Below, one piece after another: positions 41,359 through 52,404 of a DNA stretch of 64,000 nucleotides. A program made the position numbers and the translations under genes. Position 1 is the first letter of the stretch, and every line of letters begins with the position of its first letter. The notes below the pieces were generated by a model. It was not told the origin of the DNA. It saw nothing but the letters and a program-made list of their open reading frames with translations, and made no database searches. Origin of the DNA: Octopus vulgaris (lineage: Eukaryota); assembly GCA_951406725.2 (NCBI GenBank), contig OX597839.1, positions 7,192,001 through 7,256,000 on the forward strand. The letters are read 5' to 3'.

Positions 41359-41731
41359 CTAGCAGTATCGCCCGGCGTTGCTCGGGTTTGTAAGGGAAAT
41401 AAGTATATAAGCATTTTTAGAGAGTTATAGCCAAAAAATAGCAAAAATATGCATTAAAAATGGAAAAAAAATTATGGTAAACTTTTTTAAAATCGTTGAC
41501 TCATCGCAGACATTTTTAGAGAGTTACTTCCCTTATATAATAGCGAAAAAATGCATTAAAATGGAAAAAAAATGATGGTAATTTTTTTTTAAAATCATAG
41601 ACTCATCGCTCGATATGAATCACGACTATAAGATACCCGGTTTTGGTTAAACTGCACCGCAAAATGTGGGAGTAGTTAGGAATCTAAATCGTAGGAGACA
41701 GACACACAACTTGACTTTTATATATAAACGA
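41359..41731 (-). mobile_element. Non-autonomous Helitron
   Basis: Minus strand begins TC..tatatataaaa and ends with hairpin cccgagcaacgccggg plus CTAG; inserted between A and T; internal tandem repeat of about 100 bp. Confidence 0.75.
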
Positions 41732-41744
41732 TATTCTGAAGCAA

Positions 41745-41922
41745 TGGTGCGCATATACTCCTCCCTAACGATGTTTTGCTCAGTTGTGCTGGTTGCGGGT
41801 CTCCCAGGACGTTCGTCACTATCGACATATTTCGGCCATCTTCGAAACGTATGAACCACTCGTACACTTGTCTGCGGCTCATACACTCCTCTCTATACAC
41901 TTTCTGCAACTTTTTGTGGGCT
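41745..41922 (-). mobile_element. Mariner transposase N-terminal (HTH) fragment
   Basis: HKKLQKVYREECMSRRQVYEWFIRFEDGR, frameshift, VDSDERPGRPATSTTEQNI. Confidence 0.85.
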
Positions 41923-42032
41923 ATAAGCATTTGCGAAGGGAAATCCTCGTTCCCATCTCTAACCTTACGTGATACACACGGACTCGGGTTTCTGAGTAGT
42001 AATCCGTCATCAGCGTGTGACAATCACCAGCT

Positions 42033-42653
42033 TTTCTCTTTATTATAGGCGCAAGGCCTGAATACAGAGGGGACATACACAAACATGCGGAACAAAAAAA
42101 CATATGAAAGAATGAATTACAATGAATTTGCCCCAGCATGGCCACAGCTTGTGAGCTGAAACTAAATAAAATAAAAATAAAATAAAATAAAATTACAATG
42201 AATGTGAGATGGTTTCTCGTTCCCGCTCCGAGACGAAACCGTGATTTACTTTTTTACAATTAAACGTTCTTACAGTCTTTTCTTTTTTCTTTTTTAGCTC
42301 GTTCTTTTTTAGTCTTTTTTTATTGTTTTTTTGTCCTTTTTTTTCTTTATACATTTTAACAGTCTATTTTCCTCGTTTTTTATAGGAAGTACAAATTTTA
42401 CTTCTTTTTAAATGTTCATAAAAGGTTTCAAATCGTCTAATTCCACTTTGTCTATTCTCCATCTTTCTCCACTCCTCCCTTATAGACGGGGATTATACAG
42501 GTGCAAACGAGACAGTGTCTGAAATTCAACAATTTACACAATCCAAAGAATCTTGGTTCACCCGCGAGGGGAAACCTACAACAAACATACAATTTCAGTG
42601 CGTAACAATTTGAACTCACATCGAAGAAATCACAATCAACACCCATTAGTGGC
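42033..42653 (-). mobile_element. Internally deleted non-LTR retroelement, copy A (5' UTR, first ORF1 codons, 3' UTR)
   Basis: 5' 210 bp match 44450-44655 and 3' 400 bp match 42665-43018; ATG GAG AAT AGA CAA AGT starts at 42462; ends in aataaa plus an A-rich tail. Confidence 0.85.
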
Positions 42654-42664
42654 AATCACCGGTT

Positions 42665-44655
42665 ATTTATTTATTATAGGCACAAGGCCTGCATACAGAG
42701 GGGACATACACAAACATGCGGGAACAAAAAAACATATGAAAGAAGGAATTACAATGAATTAAATTATAATGAATATGAGACGGTTTTCTCGGTCCCACTC
42801 CGAGACGAAACCGCGATTTCTTTTTTACAATTAAACGTGCTTACAGTTTTTTTTCTTGCTTTTTTTTCGCTTTTTTTAGCTTGTTGTTTTTATATTATTT
42901 TTTTTTTTCTTTATACATTTTAACAGTCTATATTCCACGTTTAGTTTTTTTATGTAGTACAAATTTTACTTACTTATTTTTAAATATTCATAAAAGGTTT
43001 CAAATCGTCTTATTCCACGTCAAACTCGACTTATAACAAAAAGTTAGTGAAATATTAAAAAAAATTACAGTTGGATCGACAGACAAATATAACAAACTAA
43101 TTTGACAAAAAATGTGAATTTTTAATTATTTTCTGAGATTTTACAAAAATTAAAAAAAATATTATTAAAATTATTTTAAAATTTTCTATGCAAAGTCCAT
43201 ACATATCTCTTCCTATGAAAAGTCAATACATCTCTCTTAATTTCAAAAATCTCTCTTTAACTATGACCACTCCCCTCGTGCATTCCGGGCACCTTCCTGG
43301 CGGCAGCCCCCTTCATATTACAGATTTATACCTCACAATCGCTCTCTCCACCTCTTTACCTCTGGAATACGTGACCAAATGCCACTTACACCTCCCTCCT
43401 TTCACTTCTGCTTGCTCCGGACCCCGTCCCGATGCTCGGGCGCGCCGAAACATCACAACCAACTCCACAAACGCCTCTTCCTCCTCCCTCTGCAATGCTG
43501 TCCCTTCCTGTGTGCCCTCCTTCACCACCGCTTCTGTTGGTGCTTCACACCCACCTCTCCCTTCCTACATCACAACCTCCCTCAGACCCCTTGACTGTCT
43601 GGGGAGAATTCACCCGTACCCCCTCCTCCCCGTGTCTACCACTGTGAAGGGCTCCTCCACTCCACCTGTCACCCTCGCCGGCACAACTTCCTCAGCACTG
43701 CTTTCTTCACCCTTCCTCTCCTCCTCGTCCTCCCTCTCGAGACATCTCGTCCCCTTTTGTCCACCCCCCAGCCACATAGGAAGCATGTTGGTGGTCCCCC
43801 TCCACTGCCACTCGAAGTCCGCCGTCTTCCGGGAGTACTACTTCCTCCGCTTCACTATGCAAGTCCTCCAAAGACACCTTCATGACCACCTCGAGGCTAC
43901 AGCCCCACCAATTGGATCTCGAGGTCCCCGTCATCTTGAGGATCCCCACTCCATCCCTAATATCTCGCATCACGGCCGCCACCAGCCATTCCTCCTTGAA
44001 CTTGGGGGGCGGGCACCCCTTCAACTCCCACTCCGGCAGCGTGCCCGCCGCAGCAATTCGGTAGCAGCATCCATTTCGCTGTCTCCAACGTCTCCGTGGA
44101 GCGGTCCACGGCATCTTCCTCGCTACCAAACCCCACTTCCACAGAGCCACATCTTCCACGTGCATAGAACGTGGTCAACTCCTTCACACTCTCGAGGCAC
44201 TCCTCCGCCTCCTCCACTGGGACCACCTCCATCCTGTTCGAGGACGCAGACAACGCTCCGTACATCATCATCCTCCTCTCCATGCCCCCCCCACCAGCTC
44301 CTCAGGGGGAGCCAGCTTCAGACTGGTTCCCTCCCTCCCTCCCCACAAACCCCCTCCTTCCTTTCTCCCTCCCTCCCACGTCCACTGCCACTTCCTGCAC
44401 CTCCAGGGTGCTGGCATTCACTCCCCGTGTCGCCGCCGCCGCGTCTGCGCAACCCTGTCCACCCTCCACCCGTCCTCACTTCTCCCGCAGACGGGGACCA
44501 CACAGGTGCAAACGAAACAGTGTCCGAAATTGAACAACCTACACAACCCAACGAATCCCGGCCCACCCGCGCGGGGAAACCCACAACAAATATACAATAT
44601 CAGCGTGTAACAACTCGAAGTCACATCGAAGAAATCACAACCAACACCCAGTGGG
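42665..44655 (-). mobile_element. ORF1-only non-autonomous non-LTR retroelement (L1/Tx1-like), copy B, about 2 kb
   Basis: Bounded by aatcacc(a/g)g(c/t)t target repeats; 5' UTR, decayed ORF1, AT-rich 3' UTR and (aata)n tail. Confidence 0.8.
43223..44469 (-). pseudogene. Gag-like ORF1 pseudogene with degenerate CCHC zinc knuckle, A-to-G hypermutated
   Basis: Frameshifted frames ...YARGRCGSVEVGFGSEEDA..LLPNCCG..VPPKFKEEWLVAA..RVAVEG.PPTCFLCG..GQKGTRC (C-X2-C-X4-Q-X4-C at about 43742-43787); start codon is GTG where copy A has ATG. Confidence 0.7.
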
Positions 44656-44771
44656 AATCACCAGCTAGGGGTGAGAACTGATTCCGAACGCAAAATACTA
44701 TATGCTTTTTCCAGTGGCAAGCCGTCACTGATTTTCAAAAGGGAGAAACAAAACAAGCAATAATAAACATA

Positions 44772-44945
44772 TTTGCATAGAAAATTTTAAAATAATTTTA
44801 ATAATATTTTTTTTAAATTTTTGTAAAATCTCAGAAAATAATTAAAAATTCACATTTTTTGTCAAATTAGTTTGTTATATTTGTCTGTCGATCCAACTGT
44901 AATTTTTTTAAATATTTCACTAACTTTTTGTTATAAGTCGAGTTT
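44772..44945 (+). repeat. Inverted copy of 43022-43194 (about 172 bp)
   Basis: Reverse-complement match with only homopolymer-level differences. Confidence 0.92.
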
Positions 44946-44965
44946 ATAAACAGTAGCAGCACGAC

Positions 44966-45803
44966 ATCGTGAAGTATATTTGCCACCTAAATGTGGTTGA
45001 TCCATATGGGACGATGCTACTGTTGTTTATAGCCCTAGGAAGACATCACGTTTTCGAGATCAGTGATGATTTGTCACTGGAAAAAGCATATAGGATTTTG
45101 CGTTTGGAATTAATTCTCATCCCTAGCTGGTGGTTGTCACACGCTGATGACGGGTTACTACCAGAAACCCGGGTCTGTGTGTATCACGTAAGGCTAGAAA
45201 TGGGAACGATAATTTCCATTCGCAAATACTGATCGAGGATATTTTCCTTTTGATGGACGGAATTCAACACAATTTCTAGTCAACTAAACAGTTTGAAACT
45301 TCGTATACTGGTAGAATATGTCAAAAGAAAACATTATTTTCACTTGGCTTTTTTGAGAAAATTGTAATTTGTAAGTTTAACGTAGTTTAATTTTTCGAAT
45401 TTCCTTTTGATATTTAAGAGATATGGCTGTTATTTCTAGCACATGCCTCCTCGTTTGTTTATCAATATTGATAACGCAGCAAATGATTTGAACTCAAATG
45501 CTGGCAATTCATTGGTTAAAATTCGAAGAATTAAACTACGTTAAACTTACAAATTACAATTTTCTCAAAAAAGCCAAGTGAAAAAAATGTTTTCTTTTGA
45601 CACATTCTACCAGTATACGAAGTTTCAAACTGTTTAGTTAACTAGAAATTGTGTTGAATTCCGTCCATCAAAAGGAAAAGATCCCTGATCGAACACAGAG
45701 TGTCGTTAGCCAGCTGGAGAAGCTGTCTTCCGAGGGTTAAAAACAGCAGTAGCATCTTCCCGTATGGGTGATGTACATTGAAATGGAAAATATACTTCAC
45801 GAT
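44966..45803 (+). mobile_element. Older MITE with degenerate TIRs of about 80 bp (atcgtgaagtatatt...)
   Basis: 44966-45047 pairs with 45722-45803; contains the empty retroelement target and a nested MITE. Confidence 0.75.
45237..45684. mobile_element. Foldback MITE with TIRs of about 165 bp, GGAT ends and 8-bp TSD
   Basis: TSD ctgatcga at 45229-45236 and 45685-45692; arms share aaacttcgtatactggtagaat with the telomere-bearing MITE. Confidence 0.92.
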
Positions 45804-51984: not shown

Positions 51985-52404
51985 GGATCTTTTCGGTTTG
52001 AACGGCAGTTTTTTTCTAGCAGTGTCATATGAAATTGTCACCCATAATTATGACCCTAGCATCGATCTATTGCATTTCAATCTGTTTTAGGGTTAGAGTT
52101 AGTTAGGGTTAGGGTTAGGGGTTGGGGGAAAGGTATCTTCTTTTCTTCACAAATGTCAATAAATCCAATCTGTTTCTGAAACGAGGGACAGAATTTTTTT
52201 TACCTCAATAGACGTATTTGATTGGTTGAAATTGCAGAAATTGAAGAAAAAACAACAACAAATATCTTACAAACTATAGAATTTTCTCAATAAAGCCAAG
52301 AGAAAAAGATGTTTTATAAACACATTCTACCAGTATACGAAGTTTAAAATTTTTTAGTTACCTAGAAATTATGTTAAAAACTGCCGTTCAAACCCAAAAG
52401 ATCC
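51985..52404 (+). mobile_element. Telomere-repeat MITE, copy 3, with 8-bp TSD
   Basis: TIRs ggatcttttcggtttgaacggcagttttt; TSD gacaatac at 51977-51984 and 52405-52412; TTAGGG-like units at 52087-52119. Confidence 0.93.

Follow-up and report, generated by a model that had tools for sequence, protein, structure and literature searches.

We describe a tandem array of two retroelement copies, A and B, in a 64,000-nucleotide stretch of the Octopus vulgaris genome (G000:C26:7,192,001-7,256,000, in a genome of 2.8 Gb; hereafter the window). The nearest named protein (60%) comes from Argonauta and points to an octopod. Both copies lie inside a short repeat with a predicted hammerhead ribozyme. The reading that we consider likely is that they belong to a family of elements with open reading frame 1 (ORF1) only, that this family inserts at a site in hammerhead helix I and is moved in trans by a long interspersed nuclear element (LINE) encoding an apurinic-type endonuclease and a reverse transcriptase (APE-RT), that the array is a mosaic, and that copy B descends from edited RNA. 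In the following, the ORF1-only element is called the passenger and the repeat its host.

The passenger family inserts at one exact site

On the minus strand the locus reads host upstream part, target, copy B (44655-42665), target variant, copy A (42653-42033), target and host downstream part. The target, aatcaccagct, was found at 42022-42032 and 44656-44666, its variant, aatcaccggtt, at 42654-42664, and the same site lies without interruption on the opposite strand at 45114-45153. An earlier note, drawn from the letters of this DNA, had named these target copies and the empty site, and sequence comparison reproduced all of their coordinates; its empty target is the opposite arm of one head-to-head host repeat. 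That note mentions neither the hammerhead motif nor the A>G hypermutation of B nor the 174-nt inverted duplicate described below. Together, the segments 41923-42032 (89% identical) and 44656-44740 (85%) make up a copy of 45051-45233 that is inverted and split by the inserts. Copies A and B have in common a 5' part that is 81% identical and 3' parts that are 83% and 91% identical.

Searches of the genome gave 40 matches for the 5' end of B, 42 for its 3' untranslated region (UTR) and 126 for an intact ORF1. In the flank census made from them, duplicates were removed and 4 of 55 3' ends, found by the junction pattern alone, were dropped as biased. Among these top candidates, 47 of 51 3' ends and 30 of 36 5' ends adjoined the target site or a sister copy. 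The 3' ends ran into the host unit at a single position (25), into the next copy (13), into the 5' end of an autonomous element (1) or into the target motif followed by a deletion or another insert (8), and four showed none of these; the 5' ends were preceded by the host unit (13), a previous copy (17) or other sequence (6). At single insertions the local target variant was duplicated over 11-19 nt.

The exact 21-nt target occurred 213 times in the genome and its control not once, and the filled-junction pattern, in which the tail stands before the site, gave 13 exact genome matches as against none for the reversed control; the targeting is thus not a matter of chance. By a rough estimate the host repeat, with 3720 first-look candidates, makes up well under 0.1% of the genome. 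Kojima's rule for target specificity asks that a single sequence recur in over 20% of the flanks, and here the counts are 47 of 51 ends for the passenger and, for the partner LINE described below, 13 of 30 at hammerhead repeats with 7 more at sister copies. A caution to be set against these figures is that every search scored only the best 40-105 candidates of a high-copy set. Flank extraction, which the earlier note had proposed as the check, thus bears out its claim of site specificity, and the family almost certainly targets one exact site.

The passenger carries ORF1 only

The passenger is about 1.86 kb long and consists of a 5' UTR, one ORF, a 3' UTR and a short AATAAAGAGAAA tail with no long poly(A). 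ORF1 leads directly into the 3' UTR in 26 of the 30 best ORF1 loci, and when an ORF2 was looked for behind ORF1 in 20 further, more distant 9-kb loci, none was found; the idea of an ORF1-only, non-autonomous element therefore stands. Intact relatives were needed for domain calls, because the window's own ORF pieces gave no real Pfam match. The zf-CCHC knuckle is present in 13 of 18 open ORF1 frames, and the predicted structure of one ORF1 relative (pLDDT 72) matches tandem-RRM proteins (E 2e-5), the fold expected for the ORF1 of a LINE. The passenger thus has what defines an ORF1-only element: no ORF2, insertions of its own with target-site duplications (TSDs), and an RRM-RRM-CCHC protein whose RRM fold is predicted.

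Further ORF1-only families related to it occur within other repeats or as arrays of 4-5 copies. At L137, L138 and L139, outside the host repeat, 4-5 ORF1-only copies from several young families with open frames stand in head-to-tail arrays. Judged by eye, related families at L102, L133, L135 and L136 end in apparent long terminal repeats (LTRs) of LTR retrotransposons.

An APE-RT LINE ends at the same site

A candidate partner was discovered among the 13 filled sites, one of which, L145, is the 3' end of an ORF2. L145, L161 and the full-length but broken L208 all end at the passenger's target site, and in L208 an ORF1 precedes the ORF2. Relatives of the partner (L202-L204) carry the Pfam domains Exo_endo_phos, RVT_1 and zf-RVT, and the best PDB match is human L1 ORF2p (E 4e-40, versus 5e-9 for R2), a match that places the partner in the L1 group only. 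Among 30 partner relatives, the query included, 13 end directly before a hammerhead repeat, 7 before the next copy and 6 elsewhere, and 4 have no visible end; the 13 hammerhead-adjoining ends are divided among three related repeat families, the passenger's host family (5), a second family (3) and a third family (5). Mixed arrays of partner and passenger occur at L073 and L243.

The earlier note had asked for an autonomous APE-RT partner with the same termini. A LINE of this kind does use the same site, but its termini are not those of the passenger, and several observations speak against a close parentage. The two ORF1 proteins are 30-39% identical, the common tail is about 12 nt long and the 5' UTRs are unlike; since only the tail and this degree of ORF1 identity are in common, the true mobiliser may be an unfound family. 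Reference searches with the partner returned no named Tx1 protein, and the 5' and 3' parts that a HAL1 element has in common with its autonomous parent were not found between the passenger and this partner. We still regard it as quite probable that this LINE lineage of the L1/Tx1 group moves the passenger in trans.

The host is very probably a hammerhead-type repeat

The host unit has a period of 358 nt and a tail of about 45 nt. At 30 loci we found 22 pairs of inverted arms with differing breakpoints, 4 direct partial tandems and 4 single units. Two fixed points account for 45 of the 52 outer ends, namely unit position 349-358 (30) and tail position 40-52 (15), and 26 of the 52 lie on microsatellites, compared with 1009 of 6000 (17%) in the control. 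This layout agrees with the structure of Penelope-like elements (PLEs) as described in parts of PMC8557442. The earlier note had called the host a miniature inverted-repeat transposable element (MITE), a label that fails on the lack of fixed terminal inverted repeats, the variable breakpoints and the 4 tandem and 4 single loci among the 30, and that is further contradicted by the hammerhead core and the Penelope/retrozyme geometry.

The hammerhead motif lies 5-7 nt 3' of the duplicated site. Its parts follow one another as CUGAUGA, helix II, GAAA, helix III (two base pairs and a palindromic loop), GUC and, last, helix I's 3' strand. CUGANGA is kept in 48 and GAAA in 61 of 69 copies. In alignment A2, from which 9 of the 69 copies were excluded for length changes (the window's empty copy among them) and in which the longer L039 was retained, 89.4% of cells in 60 copies pair, versus 3-54% in slid controls and with 0 of 500 shuffles reaching it, a figure inflated by relatedness and CpG decay. 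In the second and third host families the letters of helix I differ, yet they pair in each family. One host family has the core UUGAUAA, a U3-A8 swap that is a natural hammerhead variant, and the helix III loops alternate among the palindromes CCGG, UCGA, UGCA, AU and UA. The element tail joins the 5' strand of distal helix I in all three host families, so the duplication leaves the ribozyme whole.

A number of results count against this assignment. Rfam reported no hammerhead in the window (E<=1; microsatellite artefacts only) and none in 6 loci at the gathering score. Minimum-energy folds are not the catalytic fold and have unremarkable z values (-1.7 to +0.5), helix I pairing is clearly above shuffles in only 5 of 15 copies, and there is a C-A mismatch at the base of helix II. 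Pairs with two-sided change do no better than shuffles (72/500), and CpG decay among related copies could explain much of the two-sided change in the 60-copy alignment. No PLE with the host repeat as its pseudo-LTR was found in the one family compared. On the other side, axolotl retrozymes have similarly weak helices and are active as dimers (PMC7229834, in part), and retrozymes have been argued to be PLE derivatives (bioRxiv 10.64898/2026.07.22.740005, in part). On balance, sequence and geometry make it very probable that the host is a hammerhead-type Penelope/retrozyme repeat of about 358 nt. That the element makes functional use of the predicted ribozyme cleavage seems to us rather doubtful.

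The family compared was a young Penelope-like one (L211-L240), which we rejected as the host's parent because it has no similarity to the unit. A possible likeness of the translated unit to the end of a PLE endonuclease was set aside. Many of its copies keep an open 753-aa frame and are 93-96% identical, and L225 has an inverted 5' copy.

The array is a mosaic

With A>G sites excluded, copies A and B differ by 7.6% (12/157) and 9.3% (7/75) in their two shared regions, and the medians over all pairs are 8.4% and 9.3%. They have 2 derived letters in common in both regions (95th percentile 1), and in the shared 5' part B is edited at 19 of 42 positions and A at 3 of 44. The two copies are therefore not a DNA-level tandem duplication, the outcome that the earlier note had set against its own reading: they are as distant as random pairs, and in the shared 5' part B is edited whereas A is not.

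The deletion junction of A has 2 exact sites in the genome, 42447/42446 and G000:C26:6,533,691, which are 0.7 Mb apart, and the other array has the same order of a full and a short copy. The B|A junction is identical over 48 nt, including two private letters, to L241 (G000:C26:8,129,904); it too occurs at exactly two genome sites, 0.9 Mb apart on one contig, and the local target of L241 belongs to the subtype of the middle copy. The independent insertion of A and B in place, as the earlier note had it, becomes doubtful, because deletion and junction each recur at one other array on the same contig. This recurrence implies that array blocks moved locally. The array is thus a mosaic whose A deletion and B|A junction came from sister arrays 0.7 and 0.9 Mb away. 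The blocks might have travelled as read-through RNA, with a switch of template, or might have been passed on by gene conversion.

We rejected segmental duplication as an origin of the parts in common, as there are no collinear unique flanks with L241 or L242. An origin of the 3' target copy from donor RNA is in general unsupported, since at single insertions both sides mostly show the local variant. Elsewhere, the arrays L245 and L246 (C7:7.45 and 7.62 Mb), 170 kb apart, have a private internal deletion and junction in common, a local sharing like that on C26.

Copy B carries strand-specific A>G hypermutation

We scored the letters of B against the commonest letter of 21 other copies. Over the 5' 1.46 kb of B, read on the sense strand, 224 of 528 A letters are changed to G and only 3 of 269 T letters to C (P 1e-44), so that 42% of the A letters on one strand are affected; other changes are few (G>A 18/364, C>T 11/232). 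The change is depleted after a 5' G (27/152 versus 192/341 after other letters, P 3e-16), and a 3' G is mildly favoured (P 0.015). It is spread evenly over 1.4 kb and ends before an AT-rich insert, and the 3' UTR of B is unedited (3/155), as is copy A (3/44 and 6/138). A 569-nt contig from another run, X10, agrees with 44112-44318 and 44396-44650 at all but 11 letters; because it carries the edited letters of B, these are not an assembly error.

Blocks of A>G occur in 5 of 22 near-full copies and in 7 of 106 segments; 3 of 10 flagged segments (L248 twice, L252) were dropped as diverged relatives in which G>A is equally high. The other hypermutated copies are L243, L249, L251, L256, L247 and L007, and where such a copy is 5'-truncated, the edited block takes up its 5'-most stretch and breaks off sharply.

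Depletion of an upstream G belongs to the shared ADAR motif (PMC5625713, in part). As the A>G changes are strand-specific and avoid a 5' G, B likely came through edited RNA, and we think it highly probable, judging from the pattern of changes, that its first 1.4 kb derive from RNA hyper-edited by ADAR before reverse transcription. Two points sit uneasily with this. The 3' neighbour preferred in B is G (72/138 versus 141/355), and the invertebrate ADAR motif has A downstream (PMC5625713, in part); moreover, a double-strand partner for the 1.4 kb was not found, and the window holds no inverted copy of the element. Fold-back composites occur at L122 and L243, and L122 illustrates one way in which a duplex could arise. 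At L122:5625-8242 an ORF1-only relative together with the 3' part of the host is duplicated in inverted orientation over 676 nt (98.2% identical), and the loaded repeat seems to have been copied there as a unit by Penelope-type machinery.

A putative promoter stands ahead of the site

At 16 of 25 sites the motif ATCAGY precedes the duplication by 60-69 nt. By eye, it also precedes 12 of 13 undisturbed U2 genes by about 57-60 nt, and 2 of 15 U2 genes (L266, L273) start directly behind the tail of a partner-group LINE. These positions suggest that the target lies near the predicted start of a promoter of small nuclear RNA (snRNA) type in the host, in which case the element probably borrows the host promoter. 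The case is weakened by its being one 6-mer with a spacing about 7 nt longer than at U2, and no passage on snRNA promoters was found in parts of PMC7229834. We lean slightly towards promoter capture by the element.

Features of the locus

The downstream part of the host (41923..42032, minus strand, unit positions about 131-234) contains the predicted type I hammerhead, with CTGATGA at 42013-42007, GAAA at 41992-41989 and a predicted cut at 41981/41980, which is 52 nt beyond the tail of A. This hammerhead copy is slightly decayed, with one mismatch in helix II and a non-palindromic helix III loop. The 3' TSD copy at its edge (42022..42032, minus) is the 5' strand of distal helix I. A fragment of a mariner transposase at 41718-41922 (minus; Pfam HTH_48, E 8e-7) adjoins and truncates this left arm of the host.

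Copy A (42033..42653, minus) is an ORF-less derivative of about 620 nt in which the first ~200 nt of the 5' end are fused to the 3' UTR at 42447/42446, and it ends in the AATAAAGAGAAA tail. Its 3' UTR carries a 61-nt insert (~42129-42189) that is missing in B and resembles the end of an abundant short repeat. The middle target copy (42654..42664, minus) differs in subtype from both outer copies.

Copy B is made up, on the minus strand, of the hypermutated 5' UTR and broken ORF1 (43195..44655; tblastn match 44284-43211), the AT-rich insert (43022..43194), which is absent from the other element copies fetched, and the unedited ORF1 end and 3' UTR with the tail (42665..43021). A 514-aa frame on the plus strand (43137-44681) was set aside as the antisense of the G-enriched edited ORF1. 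Ahead of B, 44656..44767 (minus) comprises the 5' TSD copy (44656-44666) together with host sequence from upstream of the insertion (unit ~35-141), in which the motif ATCAGTG stands about 66 nt ahead of the duplication.

A 174-nt segment (44772..44945, plus) interrupts the tail of the host unit. Segments 43022-43194 and 44772-44945 are inverted duplicates of 174 nt with 98.9% identity; the insert in B bears about 10 nt of element sequence at each end, and the flank copy was probably templated from B because both ends are element sequence. Assembled contigs of other runs suggest that part of the inner ~155 nt is high-copy. Next comes a host unit truncated at its 5' end, of which the 3' end and a remnant of the tail are left; it is the partial tandem of the left arm (44946..45047, minus).

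The inverted second host arm (45051..45803, plus) consists of 45051-45234 and 45695-45803, with the empty target at 45125-45135, the hammerhead core at 45144-45175 and a 3' end on (AT)n. The two parts are separated by a palindromic element of about 460 nt (45231-45690) with GATC on either side, which is unrelated to the host, looks like a MITE and has relatives in the window at 28096-28327, 29036-29216 and 52266-52404.

Discussion

Three other accounts of the locus have to be weighed. One could take the target to be the MITE of a DNA transposon into which A and B inserted successively here, each duplicating the local target. Inverted arms do flank the locus, Tx1L and Tx1-Mar do target DNA transposons and form tandems around the TSD (PMC4494074, in part), and single insertions elsewhere do duplicate the local variant. 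The inversion point, however, varies by copy, direct tandems occur and the hammerhead core is conserved; the middle target belongs to the other subtype, and its identity with one further locus is by descent, and A's deletion is older than this locus or was passed on from it. We consider this account extremely improbable. A second possibility is that the element is a fixed passenger of the ribozyme repeat, copied as a composite by Penelope machinery with no targeting by a LINE. Hitch-hiking does occur, as the inverted 676-nt copy at L122 (98.2%) with its PLE-type inverted 5' truncation illustrates, and parts of the array are common to several loci. Yet about 200 of the 213 exact sites have no tail, the duplications bear local target variants on both sides, the same offset is used by several families with 32-50% ORF1 identity and by a LINE that carries an ORF2, and sister families are found at U2 and in other repeats, all of which makes such an explanation very unlikely.

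The A>G changes of B might instead be an assembly artefact or the work of an error-prone reverse transcriptase, of GC-biased conversion or of a DNA adenine deaminase. In favour of such sources, no duplex partner turned up, the preferred 3' neighbour is not that of the invertebrate motif in parts of PMC5625713, and the responsible enzyme is invisible from DNA. They are hard to reconcile with changes that are confined to the sense strand (T>C 3/269), avoid a 5' G, come in blocks and recur in 6 other segments; the changes are also present in the contig of another run, and GC-biased conversion would lift T>C equally. We give these sources hardly any credence.

Under the reading that we prefer, targeted insertion of the ORF1-only passenger by an APE-RT LINE, the partner endonuclease would nick 15-19 nt upstream of CUGAUGA, reverse transcription would start on the short AATAAAGAGAAA tail, and a second nick would produce the 11-19-nt duplication. 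Because this duplication keeps the ribozyme intact and restores the target, arrays would build up. The host's predicted promoter would drive the inserted element, and the predicted ribozyme would cut read-through RNA some 52 nt beyond the tail.

A wider scheme, which we offer tentatively and think unlikely to hold as a whole, is a four-tier chain of parasites with germ-line feedback, made up of Penelope, the hammerhead repeat, the LINE with its passengers, and ADAR-edited copies. A Penelope element would move the hammerhead repeat; the LINE and passengers would home on the helix I base in at least three sequence-diverged families, where they would gain a promoter ahead of them and, behind them, a 3' end that is cut by the ribozyme and matches the target. 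Penelope copying of the loaded repeat with inversion would then turn the passenger into a long hairpin, ADAR would edit the hairpin, and the edited RNA would be written back as heritable copies with nearly half of their A letters changed to G, like B.

We compared this system with published ones as described in parts of the papers cited. The set in PMC4494074 comprises Xenopus Tx1L in Tx1D, crocodilian Tx1-Mar and SINEU in Mariner-N4_AMi, and Keno at U2, and there too tandems form around the TSD. As in this set, an APE-RT LINE and non-autonomous passengers use one site inside another mobile element, tandems around the TSD occur, and there are sister families at U2 and in LTR elements, the latter here apparent ones. 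The host differs from theirs in being a hammerhead-bearing retroelement and not a DNA transposon, and the passenger encodes ORF1, whereas SINEU is an snRNA-headed short interspersed element. The membership of the partner in the Tx1 clade is putative.

Among ORF1-only LINE derivatives, HAL1, HeT-A and Ag-Sponge belong to the L1 (in mammals), Jockey and CR1 clades (PMC5786205, PMC5753468). The passenger resembles them in having a 5' UTR, ORF1 and 3' UTR without ORF2 and, presumably, in being mobilised in trans. Unlike them it is site-specific, has radiated into families of 27-62% identity and spawns ORF-less forms of 0.5-0.6 kb. Nor is it a recent deletion of the partner found; it works like HAL1 but is not filed as HAL1.

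The host is like non-LTR retrozymes and PLE pseudo-LTRs in its unit of about 350 nt, predicted type I hammerhead, short helix III with a palindromic loop, mismatch at the base of helix II (C-A here, U-U in HHR_Amex2), inverted 5'-truncated copies, ~45-nt tail and (TA)n ends (PMC7229834, PMC8557442). Unlike them it occurs mostly as monomers and inverted pairs, not long tandems. In the passages on retrozymes and PLEs in PMC7229834, PMC8557442 and bioRxiv 10.64898/2026.07.22.740005, these repeats are not described as targets of LINEs.

Copy B is comparable to APOBEC-edited LTR retrotransposons, in which strand-specific deaminase clusters are likewise fixed in genomic copies (PMC4866542). It differs in that its A>G changes would have been made on RNA, in a non-LTR element and in an invertebrate. 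According to the same paper, invertebrate LTR elements lack G>A editing; its main text does not use the word ADAR. No title on ADAR-edited retrotransposons in genomic DNA was found in a search that covered subscription journals thinly. ADAR-type hypermutation is known in avian retroviruses. In the parts of the literature found for Tx1 with hammerhead, octopus with hammerhead and HAL1 with Tx1, there was no hammerhead target and no ORF1-only Tx1 element; these families may already have names in Repbase-type supplementary lists.

There are precedents for every ingredient, and the copies are old and broken; it is therefore the combination that is of interest. A retroelement with a predicted ribozyme is a further kind of landing site for sequence-specific LINEs, and one structural position is hit in families with different target letters. 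This opens a test of how LINEs choose and switch targets, whether by endonuclease specificity, promoter capture or RNA-guided annealing, and it extends the ORF1-only "half" LINEs to a site-specific lineage of the L1/Tx1 group. Octopods edit their RNA heavily (PMC5625713, in part), and copy B likely records RNA editing entering heritable DNA in an octopod.

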